Origin: an uncultured Pseudomonadales bacterium
GTDB taxonomy: Bacteria; Pseudomonadota; Alphaproteobacteria; UBA2136; UBA6156
DNA length: 64,000 nt
Direction: 5' to 3'
Assembly: GCA_964601735.1 (NCBI GenBank)
Contig: CAZROO010000004.1
Location: forward strand, 10,289 to 74,288
Shown: piece after piece, positions 5,643 through 64,000 of the stretch
Layout of the letters: the number at the start of each line of letters is the position of its first letter
Position numbering within the stretch: the stretch's first letter is position 1
Notes under the pieces: model-generated
Seen by the model: only the letters and a program-made list of their open reading frames with translations
What the model was told of the DNA's origin: nothing
Databases searched by the model: none
Made by a program: the position numbers and the translations under genes

Positions 5643-6797
5643 TTAGGCCGTCAGTAATTTAAGCTCGGCGTCGGGCAGTTTGCGGGGAAAGTATGCCGCT
5701 TTCCGCACCCAGCCATTGGCAAAAGCCGACCCATCGTTGCCCAGACGCAGCGTGCTCAGTCCACCAGGTACCGCACCACTGGCGGCGGTGCTGACGGTCC
5801 CGCCATTGGCGCAGGCGTTAAAAGCACCGTTTTTATAGCCAACAGCCAACTTGTAAACCGTATTAGCCGCCGGGCTCGAAAGCACCCCGGCCTCCATCAC
5901 CGTGCTCCCGGAAGAATCTACCGTTACCCTCAACTGTCCGCCGCTTTGCCCCAGCAACAAGCGGTTAGAGGCGCTACCGTCATCCAGTTGAATCAACGGT
6001 TGGTTGATGCTGCCATTCACGCCCTCAAAAATTCCTTCCACCAGCAGCGTGCCCTCGGTGGGATTGAATCCGATGACTGCCAGGTTCCCCAGCGTCACTA
6101 CATCAGCACTCCGGCTCATGGGGTCCACGCCGGTGGCAATCAGGCTGGTGGCCACGCCGGTTTGTTCGGCCTGGATGCCCCACGCCACATTCTCACCTAC
6201 CACGGGCGCACCGTGGAAAACCAGAATGCTCGAACTCGTCCCCGTCGCCAGCGTCGCGGTCAACTGGGCGCGATACCAGCCATTATCCACGGCCTGTACG
6301 CTGCAGCTGGTGACGCCGGCCGAGGCGCTGATCACCGAGCCATCCTGACAGCTGAAAGTCAGCAAGGCGGGGTCGCTGCCGCCGCCAAACACGGTATTGT
6401 CGCTGCCGAACAGCACGGTGCCGTCGCCGCTCACATATTTGAAATAACCGCTGAAGGTGAGGGGTGCGCCATTGGTCAACCCCGCCAGGCTGCGGTACAC
6501 GCCGCTATACCACAGCGCATCCATGACAATCGAAAACGCAGCGCCGCCATCCGGCACGGCTGCCGCATGCAGCACCGCGTTGCCGTTCAAGTTCCATTGG
6601 CTCAAATCGTTACTGTAAGTGGCCTGGTTCACCGTCGCTGCTTCAATCAGTAAACCATCGGCCGAAATGCTGGGCGTGCCACCGCTCACAAATCCCACCG
6701 GCAAGCCTTGTCGGAAGTCCACCTGCCACAGAGGGCAGGGGCTCACGCCACCCGTTACCGATATGGCAGGCGGCGAGGCTATCGTTCGCACCGTCAT
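5643..6797 (-). CDS. hypothetical protein, phage tail-fibre/host-specificity-like (Gly/Ser/Thr-rich beta-rich)
   Basis: RBS AGGAGACAG before ATG at 6797. 384 aa, Gly/Thr/Ser-rich with no hydrophobic signal. Sits beside tandem tRNA-Lys genes, a classic prophage integration site. Confidence 0.5.
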   Translation of the reverse strand: MTVRTIASPPAISVTGGVSPCPLWQVDFRQGLPVGFVSGGTPSISADGLLIEAATVNQATYSNDLSQWNLNGNAVLHAAAVPDGGAAFSIVMDALWYSGVYRSLAGLTNGAPLTFSGYFKYVSGDGTVLFGSDNTVFGGGSDPALLTFSCQDGSVISASAGVTSCSVQAVDNGWYRAQLTATLATGTSSSILVFHGAPVVGENVAWGIQAEQTGVATSLIATGVDPMSRSADVVTLGNLAVIGFNPTEGTLLVEGIFEGVNGSINQPLIQLDDGSASNRLLLGQSGGQLRVTVDSSGSTVMEAGVLSSPAANTVYKLAVGYKNGAFNACANGGTVSTAASGAVPGGLSTLRLGNDGSAFANGWVRKAAYFPRKLPDAELKLLTA

Positions 6798-6806
6798 CGC
6801 TGTCTC

Positions 6807-7118
6807 CTAAGATTGCCGCACCATGAAGGCCCACGTGCCGTCGGCGGCATTCAGGCGCACGGCGGTGACGGGGCGCAGAATCTTCTCCGCCGCGCTTGCG
6901 GTATGGGCTCCCAGAGGGCTGTCCACCCATACGGCGCTATCCGCCAGCACGTTCTCGATGTCGTCGAGGGTAATTTGCACCTTGGCGCCGCTGGAGGGCG
7001 TGCCGGAAGTCAACGCGCACACCACGCTCACCTCGCGGTTGGGGTTGACGACAAAGCTGTCGCTGATGGCGGTAATGCCAGACTGGTTCTCAAAGGTAAC
7101 AACGGTACGCACCGTCAT
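6807..7118 (-). CDS. small hypothetical protein, co-operonic with the tail-like gene
   Basis: RBS AGGAG lies 9 nt before ATG at 7118 (internal Met of the listed ORF). Both genes begin MTVRT. It is 9 nt upstream of the next gene. Confidence 0.4.
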   Translation of the reverse strand: MTVRTVVTFENQSGITAISDSFVVNPNREVSVVCALTSGTPSSGAKVQITLDDIENVLADSAVWVDSPLGAHTASAAEKILRPVTAVRLNAADGTWAFMVRQS

Positions 7119-7170
7119 GGTTGGTTTCTCCTGTTGATGATTATTAGGGTATGCACGCAAAAAACCGGCT

Positions 7171-7349
7171 CAAAGGCTGTTTGCGTAACTATTTGTGAAT
7201 TTGCCGCCCTTATGGGTAGCTCAGCCAAACCGTGTCTGGATCTGGTTTTCTCCTCCTATCGCAGTGTTTCAACTGCGGGTCGTCGTCCAAAACACAAACC
7301 AGCCACGGTTTGGCTGGCTACAAATTCACAAATAGTTATGCAAACAGCC
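7171..7349. repeat. nested inverted-repeat element (29-bp outer arms with 1 mismatch, 13-bp inner arms)
   Basis: GGCTGTTTGCGTAACTATTTGTGAATTTG at 7171-7199 pairs with CAAATTCACAAATAGTTATGCAAACAGCC at 7321-7349. Inner arms CAGCCAAACCGTG and CACGGTTTGGCTG are also present. Confidence 0.6.
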
Positions 7350-7418
7350 TTGTTACAGAACCGGTAGCGTGGTGAATTACTACTTCAGGTTGTGGCGTGT
7401 GTCAAATTTAAAAGCAGA

Positions 7419-9546: not shown

Positions 9547-10632
9547 ATGAAACCGCGCGTCCTCCATGTGGCCGAAACCCTGCCGGGCGGCGTCGCCACA
9601 ATCATGCGCCTGCTTATGCTCGACCAAACCCGCCGCTACGGCGCCACCCGCGTTATGGCTCTGATTCCCCAGCGCTACAGCCATTTTCTGCTGGTTAACG
9701 ATAGCCAGAAACACACCTATTTCCGCAGCGGGCGCAACTTTCTGGCGCTGCTGCAACTGGGCTGGGAACTGGCCGTGCTGGTGTGGCGCACCCGGCCCGA
9801 TGTTGTTCATTTACATAGTACTTTTGCGGGTGCTATCGGCCGCCCGGTGCTTTTCGCCCTGCGGCCCTGGCGCAGGGCAAAGGTGGTTTACTGCCCCCAC
9901 GCCTTTTCGTTTCTGATGGACGAGTCTCCCTTCAAAAAAAGCCTATTCGCCTTTGCCGAATACCTTCTGGCGGCCGTTACTCACGCTATCATCTGCGTCA
10001 GCCATGACGAGAAAAGAATGGCCGAGCACTTAGGCCTGTCGCCGCATAACCTCAAGGTCATCCAGAATGGTATCGAGGTTTCCAGCCGCAAGGCCAAAAA
10101 CCCCTTTACGCTGCCCCAAGGCGTTTTGAATGTGCTGTTTGTAGGCCGGTTCGATTACCAGAAGGGCTTTGACCTGCTACAAAAGGTCATGGCTAAGCTG
10201 CAGGGCCAATCCGTTCACCTCACTGCCGTCGGTGCGCCGGTGCTGGGGTATAAATACCCAGAAAAAGCGCCCAATATCACCTATACTGGTTGGCTGGAGC
10301 CACAGTATGTCGAAGCATTGATGGGAGAGGCCGACGTATTGGCCATGCCCTCCCGCTACGAAGGTTTTGGTTTGGTTTTGGTTGAAGCGATGAGCCAGGG
10401 CATGCCTGCACTGGCCAGCGACATTGGCCCGCTGCGTGAGGTAGGGCAGGAGAGCGCTATTTTCCTTAAGCCCGAAAATACCAATGCCTGGGTCAAAGCC
10501 CTGCAAACTACGTCGCCGGCCGCCTGGCGTAAGCTCGGCAAGGCGGGCAAGGAAATCTACCAGCGCCAATTTACGGCCGCCCGCATGTGCCGCGAAACCG
10601 CCGCGCTCTACACTAAACTCCTGCAAAAATGA
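9547..10632 (+). CDS. glycosyltransferase family 4 (GT-B, retaining)
   Basis: EGFGLVLVEAMSQGMPALASDIGP matches the GT4 EX7E-type motif. Confidence 0.75.
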   Translation: MKPRVLHVAETLPGGVATIMRLLMLDQTRRYGATRVMALIPQRYSHFLLVNDSQKHTYFRSGRNFLALLQLGWELAVLVWRTRPDVVHLHSTFAGAIGRPVLFALRPWRRAKVVYCPHAFSFLMDESPFKKSLFAFAEYLLAAVTHAIICVSHDEKRMAEHLGLSPHNLKVIQNGIEVSSRKAKNPFTLPQGVLNVLFVGRFDYQKGFDLLQKVMAKLQGQSVHLTAVGAPVLGYKYPEKAPNITYTGWLEPQYVEALMGEADVLAMPSRYEGFGLVLVEAMSQGMPALASDIGPLREVGQESAIFLKPENTNAWVKALQTTSPAAWRKLGKAGKEIYQRQFTAARMCRETAALYTKLLQK

Positions 10633-11657
10633 CCTCCAAACGCTGGTTACCGTGGGTTTTCAGCATTGTTCCTGTCGTCGGCTACTTGTTGGCGATGTTC
10701 GTGTTTTATGACCGGCTGCCGGAGCAATGGAGTATCGATTCCAGCTATCTGCAAGACCTCATACAGGGCGGCACGACGCTTGATGCCGACTCATATGGCG
10801 GCACGGCAAGATTGTTAGGGCTTATTCCCGATACTCTTCTCCAAATATCTATTCTTCTCCTTGGCCTTGTCATGATTGTGTTTTTTGGCCGTGGTGTTCT
10901 GACGGTTAGGGGCGGCATTACAGCGTTTATTCTGCTTACACCGCTTTTGCTGATGGGGCTGCTGCAGCCTCAAAAAGAAGTCATTGTCGCGGCCATGAGC
11001 CTTGCGGTTTTGCTGACGGCTTGCAAAAGCAAAAAAGCCTGGCCATCCCTTGTTATTCTGGTGGAGCTGTATGCTGCCTATGGGCTTTTTGTGCGGCCTT
11101 ACTATTTGCTGATTCTGCCTGTTTGCGGTGTGCTTTATGCCCTGCCGCGCTGGCCGCAGTGGTTTAAAGTTTTGGTGATGGGCTGTGCCTTTTGCGCCTT
11201 GTGGCTCGTGCCACCGGAGGTTTTTACCAGCTTGCAGGGTGTTAGGGATGATAATAATTTTGACCGTATTCTTGGCGAGTTGGGCAACCGGACCTTTTTC
11301 TTCAATCCGTTTTCGCCTGAGCACCCTTTAGGTTTTCTAGGGAATTATGCCTACGCGGCGTTACGGCTTAACTTGCCAGTTTTATTCAGCTTTCAGCCGC
11401 AGGAAATTTTTTTGAGCCTGACCAGTTTGCTTTACGGTGCGCTGGTTTATGCCCAGCTAGCCTGGGGAAACTGGCGGGCGCGTTTGATGGGTTGCCTGTT
11501 TTTGGCGCATTTGATGGTGCTATGGTTGTTCGAGCCCGACCTTGGCAGCTATTTGCGGCATGCCTCGTCGGCGGTGGCGTACCTGTGGCCGGGGCTGGCT
11601 TTATGGCAGAAACGCTGGGTTAAATTGCCCACGCGGTTGGATATTTTTAGCGCGTGA
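10629..11657 (+). CDS. polytopic membrane protein (possible polysaccharide polymerase or accessory protein), lower GC
   Basis: At least 9 hydrophobic helices. ATGA overlap with the GT4 gene. Noticeably lower GC than neighbours. Confidence 0.5.
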   Translation: MTSKRWLPWVFSIVPVVGYLLAMFVFYDRLPEQWSIDSSYLQDLIQGGTTLDADSYGGTARLLGLIPDTLLQISILLLGLVMIVFFGRGVLTVRGGITAFILLTPLLLMGLLQPQKEVIVAAMSLAVLLTACKSKKAWPSLVILVELYAAYGLFVRPYYLLILPVCGVLYALPRWPQWFKVLVMGCAFCALWLVPPEVFTSLQGVRDDNNFDRILGELGNRTFFFNPFSPEHPLGFLGNYAYAALRLNLPVLFSFQPQEIFLSLTSLLYGALVYAQLAWGNWRARLMGCLFLAHLMVLWLFEPDLGSYLRHASSAVAYLWPGLALWQKRWVKLPTRLDIFSA

Positions 11658-36498: not shown

Positions 36499-37309
36499 TT
36501 ACTTGTTTAATTTTGAACAGGCGTCACGCACGTCCTCAAACGCTACCTGCATGGCCGCCAGCATCTCCTCCTTACGGGCACCTGCAGGCACGGTTTCGGC
36601 CTGGGCGGCAAGGTCGGATAGGCTGAAGGCACCCAGGCTGGCGGCGGAGCCTTTAAGCCGGTGTGAGGTTTTGACCCAGGTTTCACTGCCAAAGTCGGTT
36701 TCGTTCAAGGTTTCCAGTCCCTTACTGGTATTGACCAAGAACGTATCAAGCAAAAGAGTACGAGCGGCAGTATCGTTGCCGGTAAGGCTATCGAGAAACC
36801 CCACGTCAAGTGTGCGGTCAACTTCCACTTCCATGCTGGCACTCTCGGCTTCTGGCACCGTGCTTACCACACCACCTTGGTGCCATTTCTGCAAAATCTT
36901 CTGTAACTTCTCAACCGTTACCGGTTTGGTCAGGTAGTCGTTCATGCCTGCTGCAAGGCACGCGTCACGGTGCTCTTTCATGGCATTGGCGGTAAGCGCG
37001 ATGATGGGCGATTTCGTGGCTCATGTTGGCAAGAAATTCAGACTTTGCGTGAGTGGCTGCTTCAGCCTTATCGCGGTATTCCTCAAGCATCTTTTGATGG
37101 CTTGAAGCCCGGCCTAGCACATTAAGCCATTCTATGATGATAAAAGGGCTGACAATTAGAACTGTCATGTCAACCCACGCATCTACTTCACCACCAAAGA
37201 CAAAGTTGGTGCCAGACGACAGTAGAAGGAACAGGGTAAGAACGGCCAGGATACGTAGTTGAAACTGTACCGACTGGTGGTTCCACTTGTTAAAGACCTT
37301 GAACAACAT
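36499..37309 (-). pseudogene. hybrid sensor histidine kinase remnant (internal deletion removes most of HisKA, all of HATPase_c and most of REC)
   Basis: N-terminal TM region and H-box ...SEFLANMSHEI run directly, with a frame change, into a receiver-domain end PIIALTANAMKEHRDACLAAGMNDYLTKP and an Hpt domain (KTSHRLKGSAASLGAF). Confidence 0.65.
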
Positions 37310-37311
37310 AG

Positions 37312-38280
37312 TTATTGACCTTTACTAAGCAGGTTCATCACCTGTTGGATTTTGCTGCGGGTAAAAGGTTTGGCTACGAAGCCGCTCACCCCGGCGGCGC
37401 GGGCTTTGTCCAGATTGTCGCGGTAACCATTGGCGGTCAGCATCACCACGCATCCCTGAGGGTCAGCGGCTTTGAGGTGTTGCAGCACGGTCAGCCCATC
37501 CACATCGGGCAAGCCAATATCGAGGAATACCAAGTCGGGAATATGGGCACGGTATTGGGCCACAGCCTCGGCGGCGCTCTGCGCCATCACGATGGTAAAT
37601 GCAGGGTCGATAAGCCCGGCCAGCAGCATCGAAGTTGAAGGGTCATCTTCCACAATCAAAATAATTTTGCGCTGGCGGCAGGGGCGCAAAGCCAATTCAG
37701 CAGCAGGGATGGAAAACTTTAACGCTTCTTGCTGTGCCAGCTTGGCAAGCTGTTCTTTTTCGGCACGCTGTATCCGCAATTTTTCCTGCTTGGCATGTAC
37801 AATGCTCAGCAGGTCATTCGATTGTGTAGCCAGGTCGTAGCGGGTTATAAGTGTGTCACCTTCGATTTTGCTAAAAGCCTTGATAAGCACCTGCTCTAGT
37901 CCTGGTAGTAACTGGGCGTCAATCTCGCGCACCAGTACCACAATGTCATTATCGGCCAATAAGTAGACGTGAGCGATACCCTCAATGGAGAGGGCCTTAC
38001 GGGTTATAACGTGCACAAAACCTTCCAGCGGGCGGGGCTGCCACGTGTTTGATAAATGCCCTGGAATGGTCAGTATCATGGCTCGCCAACCTGATTCGGC
38101 GGGGTGAATTTTCTCCAACATCGTTGCCAATGCGGCCTCAGCGTTTTCCACCACTACCTGACCCTCGAGACGTGAACCACGGCGGGCGCTGGTGAGCGTC
38201 TGGACAGTAGTGGGCCGGTTAAAGAAGGATTTATCGGTCATGGTGGTCAGCATAGTGCTTATGCTCCCAAGCACAACCAT
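37312..38280 (-). CDS. response regulator with C-terminal receiver domain and N-terminal domain of unknown function
   Basis: C-terminal REC (IILIVEDD...DLVFLDIGLPDVDG...KP). ~190-aa N-region with a coiled-coil stretch. 3 nt upstream of the kinase remnant. Confidence 0.65.
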   Translation of the reverse strand: MVVLGSISTMLTTMTDKSFFNRPTTVQTLTSARRGSRLEGQVVVENAEAALATMLEKIHPAESGWRAMILTIPGHLSNTWQPRPLEGFVHVITRKALSIEGIAHVYLLADNDIVVLVREIDAQLLPGLEQVLIKAFSKIEGDTLITRYDLATQSNDLLSIVHAKQEKLRIQRAEKEQLAKLAQQEALKFSIPAAELALRPCRQRKIILIVEDDPSTSMLLAGLIDPAFTIVMAQSAAEAVAQYRAHIPDLVFLDIGLPDVDGLTVLQHLKAADPQGCVVMLTANGYRDNLDKARAAGVSGFVAKPFTRSKIQQVMNLLSKGQ

Positions 38281-38428
38281 AAGTGTGATTTACTTGACAG
38301 GTGATGTGATATATTTCAAATACATATATGATTCATATGAATATATTATGAATTATCACAACGTACCGATTATTGCCGGTAGCTTGGTTTAATATCGTGC
38401 GTTGGCCTTTGGTAACATTTATTATTTT

Positions 38429-38935
38429 TTAGCGGGCCAAATCTTCGGCCATGCGCAGGTGCTTTTGCAGCGTAGGAAGTGTTTTGGCGGCGTAGCTGCT
38501 TACCTGGCCGTCGTTCTGTTTGGCTTCCTTGGCGTACATGCTGATGTCGGCCTTGTGGTCCTTAATCGTATTTTTGGTGAATTCCTTATCGAATTCCTCG
38601 CCGCGGAGCGTTGCCAGTTTGTTGTAAAGCTCCTGCTGGCTCTTGCTGGGCTCAGTAGGAATGTTGACCCCGACGCTGGATGCGGCCACGCCCGCGGCGC
38701 GGTAGGCATCGGAATGGTCTTGCCGCAGCGTGGCGCCGAAGGCCTTAACCCTGGGGTTGCTGCTGTTCTCCTGCGCCAGCTTGCCGATGTTCACCTCGGC
38801 AAGGTTGCCCTGCATGGCATCGGTAATGAACTTTTGCGCGCTGCCCTCGGCATTGGCGCTGGCGGCGGTGAACAGGCCCACGCCCACCAGCGCGGTGGTG
38901 AAAGTGGCCATTTTCAGATCGTTCATGAGTTTCAT
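38429..38935 (-). CDS. DUF4142-family periplasmic protein
   Basis: Signal peptide MKLMNDLKMATFTTALVGVGLFTAASANA. Duplicated ferritin-like DUF4142 pattern (FVTDAMQGNLAEVNIGKLA..; EFDKEFTKNTIKDHK). Confidence 0.6.
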   Translation of the reverse strand: MKLMNDLKMATFTTALVGVGLFTAASANAEGSAQKFITDAMQGNLAEVNIGKLAQENSSNPRVKAFGATLRQDHSDAYRAAGVAASSVGVNIPTEPSKSQQELYNKLATLRGEEFDKEFTKNTIKDHKADISMYAKEAKQNDGQVSSYAAKTLPTLQKHLRMAEDLAR

Positions 38936-59045: not shown

Positions 59046-59753
59046 TTATTGCTCCGGTTTAATGAAAATCCACCGGGTGGTTTCGTTGACCGCATAGTAC
59101 GGACTATATTGAATAACCGTTTCGGACGGAAGGGGTTGGCTGGCGAGGTTGTCGAGAATCATGTCGTGCCCATCGAGTTTGGCAGCGAGGATGGCGTGGG
59201 GCTCGTCGCGGACGGTATCTCGCAGAATGACGACGCGCAGACTAGCGTTGGCCCAGCCGAGCATGCGCAAGGATACGAACTTGGCGATGGCGTAGTCTTC
59301 GCAATCGCCGGATTTTTTAAGGAATTGCAGTGGCGTGGCCCAGTAGTCGGACTTGCCGTAGTTGTCGATATCCTCGATGTACGGGAAGCCGTTGAAGAAG
59401 CGGTTGACCGTGCGCATCTGCTGTGCCGGGCTCATTTCCTTTGCCGCGTCCATCATTTCGCGCCAGCGGCGGGCGCCGCTGGTGGGGCAGTCGTCGGCGT
59501 TATTTTCGCAGGCGTGGAGGATGCCGGATTCGTGGCGGATGCGGCTGAGGACATCGACCCATTTGGTGAAGCTGCTGATGTTGTCGCCTTTGAGTTCGAC
59601 GCGGCCGAAGAGACCTGCGGCGTGGGCGGGCGTTGCGATAAAAGTAAGCGCAAGAACTGAAACAACGCCTCCTAAAACAGACATGTGCGCGCTCGGGCGC
59701 GCGCTCTTATCGTGGATCCCGACCTTCGTCGGGATGACAGCGACATTCTGCAT
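59046..59753 (-). CDS. bacterial transglutaminase-like cysteine proteinase (BTLCP, LapG-like periplasmic protease)
   Basis: Signal/anchor VLALTFIATPAHA. Conserved GDCEDYAIAKF Cys plus downstream His and Asp. Start directly follows the HlyD stop with RBS GGAG. Confidence 0.75.
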   Translation of the reverse strand: MQNVAVIPTKVGIHDKSARPSAHMSVLGGVVSVLALTFIATPAHAAGLFGRVELKGDNISSFTKWVDVLSRIRHESGILHACENNADDCPTSGARRWREMMDAAKEMSPAQQMRTVNRFFNGFPYIEDIDNYGKSDYWATPLQFLKKSGDCEDYAIAKFVSLRMLGWANASLRVVILRDTVRDEPHAILAAKLDGHDMILDNLASQPLPSETVIQYSPYYAVNETTRWIFIKPEQ

Positions 59754-61193
59754 TTACCGCTCCGTTAACGCCGCCTCGCGCGCTTTGGTGATGGGCTTGA
59801 GCAGGTATTGCAGGATGGTCTTTTTGCCGGTTAGCACATCGACCGTGGCCACCATACCGCTTTTGATGGGGAGTTTTTGGCCGTGGTGCAGGAGGAAATC
59901 CTTATCGGCCCTGACCTGGATTTTGAAGTAGGTTTCGCCCTTGTCGGTGGTGAAGCTGTCGGCGCTCACATTACTGACGGTGCCCTTGAGGCCGCCGTAG
60001 ATGCTGAAATCGTACGCGCTGAGCTTGATGACCGCGGGCAGGCCGACGCGGATGAAGGCAATGTCTTGCGGCTTGACCTGCGCCTCGATCATCAGGCCTT
60101 CGTCGAGCGGCACCAGTTCGACGATGTTGGCGTTGGCCTGCACGGCCTGGCCCACTGTGTTGACGTGGATGTCTTTAACTTCGGCGCGGATGGGGGACTT
60201 GAGCACGCTCTGATCGACCTTGGAAATGTCGCCCTGCACGCTGGCGCCGAGGCGGTTCAACTCGTCGCGCATTTTGCCCTGGTCGTCGCGGGCCTCGTTT
60301 TTGAACTTGAGCACGGCTTCGTCGAGCTTGCCCTGGGCTTCGCGGATGCCGGCTTGCGCGCTGGGGATAGCGACCTGGGCCGTATTCAACTGGCGGCGGG
60401 CGTCGATGACCGCGCGTTGCAGGCGCAGGACTTCGACCTGTGCCACGGCGCCGGTGGCCACGTAGGGCGTGGTTTTGTCGAGTTCTTCCTTGGCGTTGTT
60501 GTAGGCGTCCTGAAAGTTGCGGGTTTTGCTCTGGGCGTCTTGCAGGTCGGCTTTTTTCTGCTCGAGCTGCTCTTTATAGACGCGGGTGGTGCTGTCGAGC
60601 TCGGCCTTGCGGCTGTTGTAGAGGTTTTCGGCTTCGGTGGCGATTTGCGGGGCCTTTTGCTTCACTTCGTCGGGGATATCGAGCGGCTTGTCGTTCAGTT
60701 CGGCGTCGATGCGGGCGATGTTGGCCATAAGGTAATAACGGCGGGCTTCCTTTTCATTCAACCCGGCGGTTGCGGCACGGGGGTCGAAGCGCACCAGTTC
60801 CTGCCCGGCCTGCACCACATCGCCCGGCTTGACCAGGATGGCGGTGATGACGCCGCCGTCGGAACTGCCCACGGCCTGCACCTTGCCGCTGGGGATGACC
60901 AGCCCCTGCCCGCGCGCGACTTCGTCGAGGCTCGCAAACCCGGCCCAGAGCAGGAACAACGTCATAAAGCCGCCAAGCACCCAGAACAACAGGACGCTGG
61001 CCGGGTGGGCGCCGCGCAGCGTGGCCTGCTGCACGTCGTCCATGAAATCGCCGTCGCCCCAGTTGTCGGGGTTCAGGCCTTCCTGGACGATTTTTTTGGC
61101 CTTGGTGATGGCCGAATGGGTTTGGTCGTGACTGACGCTCACGCCCATCGAGCGGGTCAACTTATTGTCGAGCAGGTCGAAACGTTTTTTCAT
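59754..61193 (-). CDS. type I secretion periplasmic adaptor (HlyD/LapC family)
   Basis: Single N-terminal TM, long coiled coil, C-terminal beta-barrel. HlyD T1SS signature. Confidence 0.85.
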   Translation of the reverse strand: MKKRFDLLDNKLTRSMGVSVSHDQTHSAITKAKKIVQEGLNPDNWGDGDFMDDVQQATLRGAHPASVLLFWVLGGFMTLFLLWAGFASLDEVARGQGLVIPSGKVQAVGSSDGGVITAILVKPGDVVQAGQELVRFDPRAATAGLNEKEARRYYLMANIARIDAELNDKPLDIPDEVKQKAPQIATEAENLYNSRKAELDSTTRVYKEQLEQKKADLQDAQSKTRNFQDAYNNAKEELDKTTPYVATGAVAQVEVLRLQRAVIDARRQLNTAQVAIPSAQAGIREAQGKLDEAVLKFKNEARDDQGKMRDELNRLGASVQGDISKVDQSVLKSPIRAEVKDIHVNTVGQAVQANANIVELVPLDEGLMIEAQVKPQDIAFIRVGLPAVIKLSAYDFSIYGGLKGTVSNVSADSFTTDKGETYFKIQVRADKDFLLHHGQKLPIKSGMVATVDVLTGKKTILQYLLKPITKAREAALTER

Positions 61194-62116
61194 TATTCAT
61201 CGACCTTCTTCGAGGTAAGAGCTATGTAGCAGACATCATCATAATTTTGGGGGGTTGGGGTGAATACAAGAATATTACCGTCCTCCAACCGCCCTAAAAT
61301 ACTATTCCCATTCAAGATAAAGTAAGCTTTGTTTGCCTTCATAAAGATTTTCTCAGAAACGGGCCCAGCTCCGGTTATGTAAGGATGCAAAAAATCTGAC
61401 TCAAAGGGACTGAGAACTTTAATGCCTTTGGAGTTGGCCAAAGAGGCTTTCCATATCTTTTCTTGTTGCATATGAGCTTGATACAATTTGTCAAAATTGG
61501 GCCATTTTTTTAGCCAATATCCCCATGTTCCTATGGAAGTGTTCATATCCTTTTCTGTTTGAAGAATACCACTCAAACTGGCATCTCGGTCTACAATTGC
61601 AGGGTCGACATCTACAGATACAGGGCTATCTTTAATGTCCCTATATTCAGTATCTTTTTTTAAGATGCGTATCTTTTGATACTGCATATCCCCAGCAACG
61701 CTAACCATTCTAGGTTTTCCCTCACCAAAAACATCAACCAGATAAACAGTTTCTTTATAAAAATCTGGGTAGCTGCCGGGAGGATTGGGGAGTATAATTT
61801 CTTTCGTCGGCGGCTCTGTAAAACCTATTTGGGAAAATCTTTCCGGTGCTCGTGTTTCAAAATTAGTCCAATCAACATGGTTCACGCCCTCTTCATCCTC
61901 TGGCAAAGGAGACCATTTGTCTTTATTCGTATTATTATTTGTCTCTATCAACATCTGCTCATATAGCTTTGCCAATGGCTTACAAATTTCGTCATTCTCA
62001 CTCATGACCAGTTTGTAATGAAAGATTTCAGGCTTTGGGTTACCTTTTGGGGCATCTGAGGCAGATGCGATACTGCTTAAAAGCACCATACTCAGAAAGG
62101 CTGCGCAAGTTTTCAT
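61193..62116 (-). CDS. secreted hypothetical protein, low GC (~40%), wedged between T1SS ABC and adaptor genes
   Basis: Signal peptide MKTCAAFLSMVLLSSIASA. TAATG stop/start overlaps at both ends. Strongly AT-skewed codon usage versus ~63% GC neighbours. Confidence 0.55.
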   Translation of the reverse strand: MKTCAAFLSMVLLSSIASASDAPKGNPKPEIFHYKLVMSENDEICKPLAKLYEQMLIETNNNTNKDKWSPLPEDEEGVNHVDWTNFETRAPERFSQIGFTEPPTKEIILPNPPGSYPDFYKETVYLVDVFGEGKPRMVSVAGDMQYQKIRILKKDTEYRDIKDSPVSVDVDPAIVDRDASLSGILQTEKDMNTSIGTWGYWLKKWPNFDKLYQAHMQQEKIWKASLANSKGIKVLSPFESDFLHPYITGAGPVSEKIFMKANKAYFILNGNSILGRLEDGNILVFTPTPQNYDDVCYIALTSKKVDE

Positions 62117-64000
62117 TACGCTTGGTCCTTGGTCTTGTTATGGCTGAGCCAGTCGAGAACCTTCTTTTTGGGGCCGTCGGCGATGATTTTGCCGTCGTCG
62201 ACAACAATCAGGCGGTCGACCAGTTCGAGCATGGCCGGGCGGTGGGTGATGAGCAGCAGGGTGCGGTGCTTGAGCCATTTGTCGAGCCGCTCGATGACCC
62301 ATTGCTCGCTTTGGGCGTCGAGCTCGGAGGTGGGGTCGTCCAGCACCACGAGGTTGCCGTCGTGCATCAGGGCGCGGGCGAGGCCCACGGCCTGACGCTG
62401 GCCGCCAGAAAGATTTTCGCCGCGCTCGCCCACCGGCAGGTCGAAGCCTTTGGGATGGCGGCGCAGCAGGCGGTAGGCGCCGGAGATTTCGACAGCCTGG
62501 ATAAGCTGGTCGAAGGTGGCGTCGGGTTTGGCGAGCAGCAGGTTTTCGCGCAGCGTGCCCCGGAACAGGTAGAGGTTTTGAGGGAAGTAGCAGACGTTCT
62601 TGCGCACTTCGGCGGGGTCGATTTGGCGGATTTCGAGGTCGTCGAGCAGAATGCGGCCATTGGTGGGCTGGTACAGGCCCAGCAGCAGGCGCGCGATGGT
62701 GGACTTGCCGCTGCCCGCGCGGCCGACAATGCCGACGCGCTCGCCGGGCTCGATGGTGAAGCTATAGCCCTTGACCGAATCGACCGGCGTGCCGGGGTAG
62801 GCGAAGGAGACGTCTTCGAACTCGATTTTGCCCTTGAGGTTGCCGACGTGGACGAAGGGCTGGCCGTCTTTGCGTTCGACGTCGCTGTGCATCAGCTTGG
62901 TGAGGTTATTGAGCGCAGTGTGGCTTTGCTCGTAGCGGACGATCAAGCTCGCCAGTTGGCTGAGCGGCTGCATGCCGCGGGACAGCAGCATGGTACAGGC
63001 GACCAGCGCACCCGTGGTGAGGCTGCCCGCCCAGATGAGGTAGATGCCGGCGACTATCATGCCCACGTACATGAACTGTTGCAGGAACTGGGTGGAATTG
63101 AGCGCCAGCGAGCTGAGGAAGCGCACCTTGACGCTGCTTTTGGCGGTGGCGCCGGTGAGCGCTTCCCATTTGCCCTGGGAGGCTGACTGGCTGCCGAGGG
63201 CTTTGATGTTTTCGAGCGAGTTGATGGTTTCGACCAGGTGGCCGTGCTTGATGTCGGTTTCGAGCGAGACTTCGTGCATCAGGGCCTTGATGGGGCGGAC
63301 GATGGCGATGCCGTTGACCAGCACCAGCGGGATGGCCACCAGCGGAATAAGTGCCAGCCAGCCGCCGATGAGGAAGATGATGAAGATGAACAGCAGCATG
63401 AACGGCAGGTCGATAAAGGTGGTGAGGGTGCCGCTGGTGAAAAAGTCGCGCAGGCTATCGTATTCCCGCAACTGGTTGGCGAAGGCGCCCGCGCTGTTCT
63501 GGTTTTGGCCCATGCGCAGGTTAAGCAGTTGCTGGTAGAGGCGGCTGGCGAGGAGGAGGTCGGCCCCCTTGCCTGCGACGTCGATGAAATAGGTGCGGAG
63601 CTGACGGAAGGCGAGATCGAACAAGAGGCCCACGGCCAAGCCCAGCGCCAGCACCCAGAGCGTGGCCTCGGCCTGGTTGGGGATGACGCGGTCATACACG
63701 TTCATGGCGAACAGCGGCGTGGCCAGGCCGATGAGGTTGGAAAACAGGGCGATGGCGGCCACCTTGCCGTAAAGTGGGCGGAATTCCTTGAGCGTGCTCC
63801 AGAACCACTGCTTGGCCGGGTGGCGGGCTTCGGCGGTGAGTTCAAGCATCAGGCCCCTTTTGACCAGGATGAGGTAGCCCGCGTAGACTTCCTCTGCCGC
63901 CTTGAGGCCGTGGAACGTCTGGGCTTTGCCGGAGAGCGGGTCGAACAGGGTGAAATCGTTGCCTTCGCGCGTATAAAGGATAGCGGCACGGCCCGTGGCG
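62116..64000 (-). CDS. type I secretion ABC transporter ATPase/permease with N-terminal C39-like domain (LapB/HlyB family); 5' end beyond window
   Basis: Frame open to the window edge, with an upstream C39-like stretch (EGNDFTLFDPLSGKAQTF). 6 TM helices. Walker A GRAGSGKST, LSGGQRQ and Walker B VLDDPTS. Confidence 0.85.
   Translation of the reverse strand, partial: ATGRAAILYTREGNDFTLFDPLSGKAQTFHGLKAAEEVYAGYLILVKRGLMLELTAEARHPAKQWFWSTLKEFRPLYGKVAAIALFSNLIGLATPLFAMNVYDRVIPNQAEATLWVLALGLAVGLLFDLAFRQLRTYFIDVAGKGADLLLASRLYQQLLNLRMGQNQNSAGAFANQLREYDSLRDFFTSGTLTTFIDLPFMLLFIFIIFLIGGWLALIPLVAIPLVLVNGIAIVRPIKALMHEVSLETDIKHGHLVETINSLENIKALGSQSASQGKWEALTGATAKSSVKVRFLSSLALNSTQFLQQFMYVGMIVAGIYLIWAGSLTTGALVACTMLLSRGMQPLSQLASLIVRYEQSHTALNNLTKLMHSDVERKDGQPFVHVGNLKGKIEFEDVSFAYPGTPVDSVKGYSFTIEPGERVGIVGRAGSGKSTIARLLLGLYQPTNGRILLDDLEIRQIDPAEVRKNVCYFPQNLYLFRGTLRENLLLAKPDATFDQLIQAVEISGAYRLLRRHPKGFDLPVGERGENLSGGQRQAVGLARALMHDGNLVVLDDPTSELDAQSEQWVIERLDKWLKHRTLLLITHRPAMLELVDRLIVVDDGKIIADGPKKKVLDWLSHNKTKDQA

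Follow-up and report, generated by a model that had tools for sequence, protein, structure and literature searches.

In Stenotrophomonas maltophilia, the effector Smlt3024 is neutralised by Smlt3025, a periplasmic lipoprotein whose gene lies directly upstream of that for Smlt3024, and the domain of Smlt3024 also heads more than 200 large RTX (repeats-in-toxin) proteins (PMC6759196). Smlt3025 shares the fold of FrpD, which is encoded upstream of FrpC, an RTX protein of a type I secretion system (T1SS), and binds the N-terminus of FrpC; the two have been proposed as a possible T1SS effector/immunity pair, with the role of FrpD still unsettled (PMC6759196). We analysed a 64-kb stretch of contig CAZROO010000004.1 (the window), in which an open reading frame (ORF) of 307 codons, called X in the following, lies between the ABC transporter and HlyD adaptor genes of a Lap/Dvh-type adhesin T1SS operon. 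X is a member of a rare family of exported proteins, as yet uncharacterised, whose usual place is directly upstream of a large RTX-type secreted protein, often overlapping its start. We are highly confident of the evolutionary part of our account, namely that X entered this operon by a recent, ORF-exact and coupling-preserving horizontal insertion. As to its function, we propose with about even confidence that X is an orphan periplasmic immunity-like binder of RTX-type proteins. These two gradings are judgements, not computed values.

Orphan immunity genes associated with bacteriocins, contact-dependent inhibition (CDI), Rhs proteins and type VI secretion systems (T6SS) are small, diverge fast, are mobile and of atypical composition, and persist intact without toxin genes or beside decayed ones; in the same systems, toxin domain and immunity gene travel as a module. 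The layout seen in the X family is the mirror image of the classical one, where a C-terminal toxin is followed by its immunity gene, since here the domain is N-terminal and X lies upstream. A further difference is that X is spliced into an operon for secretion machinery and not into an immunity island, and that it matches no Imm family of Pfam.

The arrangement of the FrpD and Smlt3025 loci, an exported protein directly upstream of a protein with an N-terminal domain and RTX repeats, is also that of the X family, the window copy being without a partner. With Smlt3025/Smlt3024 (the X-Tfi/X-Tfe pair) the X family would further share the proposed neutralisation, by the upstream protein, of a toxin that acts in the periplasm, and with FrpD/FrpC of Neisseria meningitidis it shares the position of an exported protein directly upstream of an RTX protein. 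However, Smlt3025 is a lipoprotein and FrpD an outer-membrane lipoprotein, whereas X has a signal peptide of the signal peptidase I (SPase I) type and no lipobox; and Smlt3024 is delivered by a type IV secretion system (T4SS) through a C-terminal XVIPCD, whereas the partners of the X family end in RTX-type repeats. We could not find any sequence or Foldseek similarity between X and the FrpD structure 5EDF: both 5EDF and 6PDK are absent from the 50 best Foldseek matches shown for X, and the family profile has no PDB match at E<=10. The likeness of X to the Smlt3025 and FrpD pairs is thus one of architecture and logic, and not demonstrated family membership. Homology of the partner N-terminal domain to Smlt3024 was also considered, and rejected on an hhalign comparison with residues 4-260 (probability 0.25%), the Smlt3024 sequence being that of S4 Fig of PMC6759196.

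Recent insertion of X between two overlapping genes

The sequence-only reading had described X as a low-GC ORF in a GC-rich operon, and recalculation bears this out. GC content and GC at third codon positions (GC3) are 0.404 and 0.39 in X, against 58-66% and 74-87% in its neighbours (GC/GC3 0.626/0.865 for ABC, 0.614/0.831 for HlyD, 0.579/0.737 for the LapG-like protease and 0.664/0.851 for the HD-GYP protein). X is in fact the lowest-GC 924-nt stretch of the window, ~5 standard deviations (sd) under the mean (0.593, sd 0.037), and the GC step matches its ends to within 100 nt. To judge from its 307-codon open frame in 40% GC DNA and from its 24 homologue clusters (see below), X is a real gene and not a chance frame.

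The N-terminus of X, MKTCAAFLSMVLLSSIASA followed by SDA, shows a basic residue and a hydrophobic core as well as an A-x-A site, and looks like an SPase I signal peptide, in agreement with the earlier description of X as a 307-aa protein with a Sec signal. The one-base TAATG overlaps reported at both of its ends are likewise present (Table 1). The JGI call for an identical metagenome gene (P0001, 298 aa) starts instead at Met10, not at Met1 (window 62090-62116), which leaves a 26-nt gap without overlap and removes the basic n-region of the signal peptide; automatic annotation would therefore hide the coupling. On sequence grounds Met1 gives the better signal peptide, and its codon is the one that overlaps the ABC stop.

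All sequences compared in this study are metagenome assemblies. A relative of the window HlyD at 99% identity (P0026) is encoded on three contigs (L024, L025 and L026) that are 98-99% identical to the window at the nucleotide level on both flanks, and yet do not contain X: the ABC stop codon directly overlaps the HlyD start (GCATAATGAGCCGCAAACG; ...GACCAGGCATAATGAGCCGCAAACG...), and HlyD begins with MSRKRFD. ABC and HlyD are also adjacent, without X, in two more distant relatives, at 80% (L027/L028, from the metagenome-assembled genome (MAG) GCA_036261915.1) and 72% HlyD identity; the closest named relative is an alphaproteobacterial MAG. These closer relatives of the operon came only via protein search and contig look-ups, as HlyD scans of genome and metagenome collections returned no close relatives. 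The claim that an alien gene splits a normally contiguous ABC-HlyD pair is thus upheld, and X is not universal at this position in related operons. Of the two readings first suggested for X, a recent insertion that kept the coupling is strongly supported by these empty sites.

The filled allele was assembled independently in the window, L001 and L002, with a further filled contig, known from gene calls only, in sample 3300056388; the empty allele was assembled in three samples. In the window, L001 and L002 the junctions are identical (left GCGTAATGAAAACTTGC, right GAATAATGAAAAAACG) and HlyD begins with MKKRFD, one codon (Ser2) shorter than at the empty sites and in the outgroup (MSKKRFD). Since the Ser2 codon is present at the empty sites and in the outgroup and gone from the filled ones, the insertion, and not a deletion, is the derived state, and it happened once; an origin of the empty strains by deletion was rejected on the same codon and the outgroups. 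We also rejected the idea that flanking T1SS DNA had come along with X from a related donor operon, since the flanks are 98-99% identical up to the junction and the clusters of single-nucleotide polymorphisms (SNPs) in the 5' end of HlyD are polymorphic among filled strains as well.

Among filled strains X differs by one SNP in 924 nt, a conservative I184L change, and the flanks by 16-26 SNPs per about 2.3-2.7 kb, with a mosaic flank haplotype in L002. X is therefore younger than the flanking diversity, or was moved between haplotypes by homologous recombination. We conclude that X was inserted recently and only once, that the filled state is the derived one, and that the site is polymorphic among co-occurring strains.

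In the 5' part of hlyD, strain SNPs cluster in two ~230-nt patches (window 60950-61180 and 60150-60390), and the filled contig L002 combines the window and empty-site haplotypes in a mosaic. Both observations indicate homologous recombination among co-occurring strains.

Concerning the mechanism, the insert is exactly one ORF, and we found none of the hallmarks of a mobile element at X (terminal inverted repeats, non-coding ends, mobility gene). An insertion sequence, an integron cassette and a miniature inverted-repeat transposable element were each discarded as candidates: there is only a 9-nt direct repeat, TAATGAAAA, whose first six bases, TAATGA, already exist in the empty site. X was acquired horizontally and inserted exactly from start to stop codon into the one-base TAATG overlap of ABC and HlyD, most probably by illegitimate recombination that used short microhomology of a few bases on either side.

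There is no non-coding DNA upstream of X, and a promoter and terminator scan inside the X region gave nothing above shuffled expectation. The AAGGA that precedes X is the same element, in the same position, that precedes HlyD in the empty-site strains, and the last codons of X (TCG AAG AAG GTC GAT GAA TAA) place an AAGG at equal distance before the displaced HlyD start. Both junctions could, from their sequence, support coupled translation. X would then share the transcript of the operon, be translated by coupling and reach the periplasm through the Sec pathway.

The X family and its RTX-type partners

The sequence-only reading had found no recognisable homology for X. This stands for the curated libraries: X has no family in Pfam, NCBIfam or PHROGs at E<=0.01 (one spurious match at E 0.027), no match among PDB sequences by single sequence or profile (the latter at E<=10), and its domain matches no Imm family or periplasmic lysozyme inhibitor in Pfam or NCBIfam. 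A word-indexed protein search with X, and then with the family alignment, gave X alone or two proteins. However, an exhaustive HMMER profile scan of 1.84 billion representatives revealed a small family of 24 other clusters, with identities from 44% to ~25% and E-values from 1e-55 to 2e-4. All are metagenomic "hypothetical proteins", one of them from a Stellaceae MAG. Searches of plasmids by tblastn, with X and with its partners' N-terminal domain, gave no match.

The family shares conserved blocks (HYxLVMSxDDxxCKPLxxLYN, TDFE..PE.F..IGF, F.EG.PR, ILKKG, GY.L.KWP.F, YFI.N and VY.LT...D.CY) and two near-invariant cysteines, C45 and C296 in X, which are probably disulfide-bonded in the periplasm. 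A signal-peptide-like N-terminus, taken as a hydrophobic segment with a 12-residue Kyte-Doolittle mean of about 1.9 or more, is present in 23 of the 25 members, and the other two look N-terminally truncated. By eye, X and most homologues have A-x-A sites and no lipobox (L-[AS]-[GA]-C). One member, P0019, carries an added N-terminal LprI domain (lysozyme-inhibitor family, E 2e-6).

With the family alignment, AF2 gave a confident alpha/beta model (predicted local distance difference test, pLDDT, 83; predicted template modelling score, pTM, 0.82), the single X sequence giving a useless one (pLDDT 33). Foldseek comparison of the X model with the PDB and viral structures returned no match (best E 0.09), and a weak match to CarG (TM 0.22/0.38) was judged meaningless.

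We examined nine genomic contexts of the family, the window and eight others (Table 1). In seven of these eight, what lies directly 3' of X is a large homologous RTX-type protein, or else the start or a decayed remnant of one; the remnants (L017, L019/L020 and L029) were matched to the partner N-terminus by eye only. The three long partners (L008, L012 and L018) are homologous to each other, without signal peptide, and consist of a conserved ~270-aa N-terminal domain and C-terminal RTX-type repeats. These repeats match RTX models of NCBIfam in L008 and L012; the L018 partner has no RTX model match, and its Gly/Asp-rich repeats were recognised by eye only. The lack of a signal peptide, together with the N-terminal domain and the repeats, makes the partner a likely T1SS substrate.

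The N-terminal domain carries the motifs E..FE, FYxD, GYG, NWGAAAY and G..RR.AEA..LGF, and the L012 partner has a weak LysM match. Four collinear motifs of the domain resemble GH24 lysozymes by eye only. A GH24 or phage-type lysozyme is thus a lead only, every statistic being non-significant. Only if the domain were lysozyme-like, a likeness that is statistically unsupported, would the closest precedent in mechanism be pesticin and Pim, where a T4-lysozyme-like bacteriocin, a muramidase toxin, is neutralised in the periplasm by its immunity protein.

GC3 of X is below that of its neighbours in all nine contexts, and the first 300-900 nt of the three full partners have a GC3 of 0.43-0.50, against 0.65-0.90 in the repeat region. 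Given this shared low GC3, X and the partner N-terminal domain behave as one compositional module grafted onto resident repeat scaffolds. The surroundings of X are often plasmid-like or like integrative and conjugative elements, with relaxase/MobC, T4SS coupling protein, integrase, ParA, HicAB and RelE genes.

Three of the contexts show further peculiarities. In L029 (151-1620) the X domain is preceded, in one fused protein, by the LprI/DUF1311 domain mentioned above; its gene starts 1 nt after the stop of an HlyD-family adaptor gene, a second case of embedding in a T1SS operon, and a remnant of ~32 codons of a partner N-terminus overlaps its stop. P0022, of all inspected homologues the most distant, is found in L030 (1841-4063), 33 nt behind a Fic-domain gene and close to a RelE/helix-turn-helix toxin-antitoxin pair, with a GC3 of 47% against 70-77% around it and no RTX partner. 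In L018, the partner is directly followed by an ORF of 214 aa (6737-7381, GC 41%) with ~4-5 hydrophobic segments, which would encode a multi-pass membrane protein; Pfam gave no match for it, and the other loci hold no homologue.

Table 1. Features of the window around X, and genes found 3' of X in the other contexts of its family
Sequence	Feature	Coordinates	Strand	Remarks
Window	X, ORF of a novel exported-protein family (307 aa, 924 nt)	61193..62116	-	GC 40.4%, GC3 39%; absent from sister strains
Window	Predicted Sec (SPase I) signal peptide of X, residues 1-19	62060..62116	-	MKTCAAFLSMVLLSSIASA, cleavage before SDA
Window	Upstream TAATG junction	62114..62118	-	ABC stop TAA and X start ATG, one-base overlap
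Window	Downstream TAATG junction	61191..61195	-	X stop TAA and HlyD start ATG, one-base overlap
Window	Left copy of 9-nt direct repeat	62110..62118	-	TAATGAAAA
Window	Right copy of 9-nt direct repeat	61187..61195	-	TAATGAAAA; HlyD here MKKRFD, versus MSRKRFD/MSKKRFD
Window	Shine-Dalgarno-like AAGGA (putative function)	62126..62130	-	10-14 nt 5' of X start
Window	AAGG in last X codons, candidate replacement ribosome-binding site	61204..61207	-	-14 to -11 from HlyD start
Window	T1SS ABC transporter, LssB/LapB type	62116..64000	-	Runs off window end; whole gene 721 aa (L001/L024), weak C39-like N-domain
Window	HlyD-family T1SS periplasmic adaptor, LapC-like, 479 aa	59754..61193	-
Window	LapG/DvhG-like periplasmic transglutaminase-like cysteine protease (Peptidase_C93)	59046..59753	-
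Window	DvhD-like membrane receptor, C-terminal HD-GYP (HD_5), 551 aa	57379..59034	-	Last operon gene
L008	Partner, >1549 aa	5251-9897		Directly 3' of X, ATGA overlap
L012	Partner, >1111 aa	974-4306		Directly 3' of X
L018	Partner, 777 aa	4378-6711		Directly 3' of X
L016	Start of partner-type gene			Then contig end
L017	Intact X, then short remnant of partner N-terminus
L019/L020	Intact X, then short partner remnant			Remnant overlaps X stop
L029	Intact X, then short partner remnant			Remnant overlaps X stop
L030	No partner			Fic and RelE genes nearby

Possible functions of X

We propose, as the most likely reading and at about even odds, that X is an orphan periplasmic protein of the immunity type. 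It would bind and neutralise the N-terminal domain of its partners in the periplasm; the copy in the window would be directed against such proteins made by neighbouring cells, and would stay expressed by riding in an operon that the cell needs. This proposal is suggested by the export of X and its tight coupling to a likely T1SS substrate, by the co-variation of its composition with that of the partner N-terminal domain, by its fast divergence and carriage on mobile DNA, and by its repeated preservation, intact, beside apparent decayed partner remnants. Immunity genes, but not chaperone genes, would be expected to stay intact next to a dead partner as X does. The LprI domain fused to one member is a further hint, and the Smlt3025 and FrpD pairs provide published precedents.

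Several points weigh against this proposal. We could not detect any similarity, in sequence or fold, of X to known immunity proteins, including 6PDK and 5EDF, and with ~290 mature residues X is large for such a protein. A toxic or enzymatic activity of the partner N-terminal domain is conjectural: the domain has no significant Pfam, PHROG or PDB match, and hhalign puts a segment of it in register with the T4 and P22 lysozymes at a probability of 1% or less. No cognate partner gene was seen in the 64 kb of the window, so the benefit of X to its host is conjectural as well. The 214-aa membrane protein of L018 could itself be the true immunity protein, and the nine contexts lie mostly on short contigs.

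More tentatively, and with odds that we would put well below even, X and the partner N-terminal domain might form an undescribed class of T1SS-delivered polymorphic effector/immunity modules, in which X genes would behave as promoter-less cassettes that settle at stop/start junctions of resident operons via microhomology (TAATGA). In such modules the variable toxin domain would be N-terminal, as the secretion signal is C-terminal, with the immunity gene upstream, in mirror image of the classical layout. Such cassettes would explain why, in three independent cases, an orphan is found right behind an upstream stop codon, two of these cases lying within T1SS operons.

Alternatively, X may be an accessory or anchor protein like FrpD. 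By binding the N-terminus of its RTX partner, it would serve to tether, fold or process the partner or to hold it at the envelope; in the window it might act on the resident adhesin or have no target. FrpD/FrpC show the same gene order and coupling, and the family is embedded in or beside T1SS genes twice, in the window and in L029. Moreover, Lap-type T1SS substrates expose their N-terminus to the periplasm. The N-terminus of the Dvh-system substrate is exposed there too (PMC13090378). However, an accessory protein should decay with its client, whereas L017, L019/L020 and L029 keep an intact X by apparent partner remnants, and two copies, those of the window and L030, stand without any partner. 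The resident cadherin-type adhesin (L024) has no similarity to the partner N-terminal domain, and X, unlike FrpD and Smlt3025, has no lipobox. We therefore regard this alternative as unlikely.

It is equally doubtful that X is a functionless passenger, inserted by chance through illegitimate recombination, tolerated as the coupling was kept, and persisting by drift or hitch-hiking. Such a status would agree with a filled allele that is polymorphic and not fixed, with the lack of a cognate partner gene nearby, with a junction repeat of 6-9 nt only and no mobility machinery, and with the unameliorated composition of X, which implies little time for visible selection. Yet the ORF is intact in all three sequenced copies, with one conservative difference, and its presence on two or more flank haplotypes points to spread by recombination; and in two unrelated genomes (L019 and L029) an intact orphan of the family sits right behind an upstream stop codon, a recurrence that argues for selection on expression.

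The sequence-only reading had suggested that X could be a periplasmic accessory or inhibitor of the secretion/adhesin system. As a dedicated periplasmic regulator of the Lap/Dvh system, X might for instance inhibit the LapG-like protease or prevent release of the adhesin, and its predicted periplasmic location and its place inside a lapB-lapC-lapG-dvhD operon speak for such a role. We now consider it very improbable, since the same operon lacks X in sister strains and in the relatives at 80% and 72% HlyD identity, and none of the eight other contexts of the family has LapG or LapD/DvhD genes, seven of them tying it instead to an RTX-type protein. Finally, that X is an artefact, either an assembly chimera or a native ancestral gene deleted in the empty strains, has a negligible probability even with metagenome assemblies throughout, given the independent assembly of both alleles, the unameliorated composition of X, and the fact that a deletion between the TAATGAAAA repeats would leave MKKRFD, whereas the empty sites have MSRKRFD, like the MSKKRFD of the outgroup.

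Host operon, other patches of the window and significance

The minus-strand operon runs in the order ABC, X, HlyD, LapG-like bacterial transglutaminase-like cysteine protease (BTLCP) and HD-GYP protein, and with both the ABC/HlyD pair and the protease/receptor pair present it is a Lap/Dvh-type adhesin T1SS operon. ABC matches TIGR03375 with 801 bits (cut-off 693), HlyD the type I adaptor model TIGR01843 with 348 bits (cut-off about 208-209), and the protease Peptidase_C93 with 73 bits (cut-off 27); HD_5 of the receptor scores 99.8 bits. Against the NCBIfam LapG equivalog the protease scores 95, far under the cut-off of 320, and is therefore LapG-like but not an equivalog. The longer sister contigs add a divergent TolC-like gene and an 828-aa protein with cadherin/Big_9 repeats.

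The operon thus resembles the described Lap/Dvh systems (LapBCE-LapG-LapD; DvhG-DvhD) in its LssB/LapB-type ABC, HlyD, BTLCP protease and HD-GYP-type receptor, and differs from them by X, which is no component of such systems, being absent from sister strains and relatives. The receptor for cyclic di-GMP (c-di-GMP) is of the DvhD type, with an HD-GYP C-terminus, and not of the LapD type (GGDEF-EAL). The Dvh form of the Lap scheme, whose c-di-GMP receptor has a degenerate HD-GYP domain, is known from Desulfovibrio vulgaris (PMC13090378), and the layout described there for Desulfovibrio is found here in an alphaproteobacterial lineage.

Two other patches of the window have a low GC content. The second-lowest of all (36900-38650, minimum 0.42) contains three ORFs: one of 322 aa (37312-38280, minus strand) encodes a response regulator that lacks a Pfam match over its first ~200 aa, one of 114 aa is without match, and one encodes an Hpt domain. 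In a patch of 46-51% GC, a 342-aa ORF without Pfam match (10629-11657, plus strand) overlaps the end of a GT4 glycosyltransferase gene (9547-10632) by 4 nt.

The locus is an unusually clear natural record of a gene gain, as co-occurring strains carry the operon either with or without one foreign ORF. The nucleotide-exact insertion re-uses the putative resident ribosome-binding site and gives the displaced gene a look-alike site, and thereby illustrates how a gene lacking a promoter can become part of a translationally coupled operon and leave it intact. Although not categorically new, the case is a rare snapshot, at nucleotide resolution, of gene gain inside an overlapping gene pair. It also uncovers a small family of exported proteins with a confident predicted fold that has no PDB match, tied to RTX-type proteins, both families being uncharacterised. 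If the analogy with FrpD/FrpC and Smlt3025/Smlt3024 holds true, these proteins would represent new antibacterial effector/immunity pairs of T1SS, of which very few examples have been characterised.

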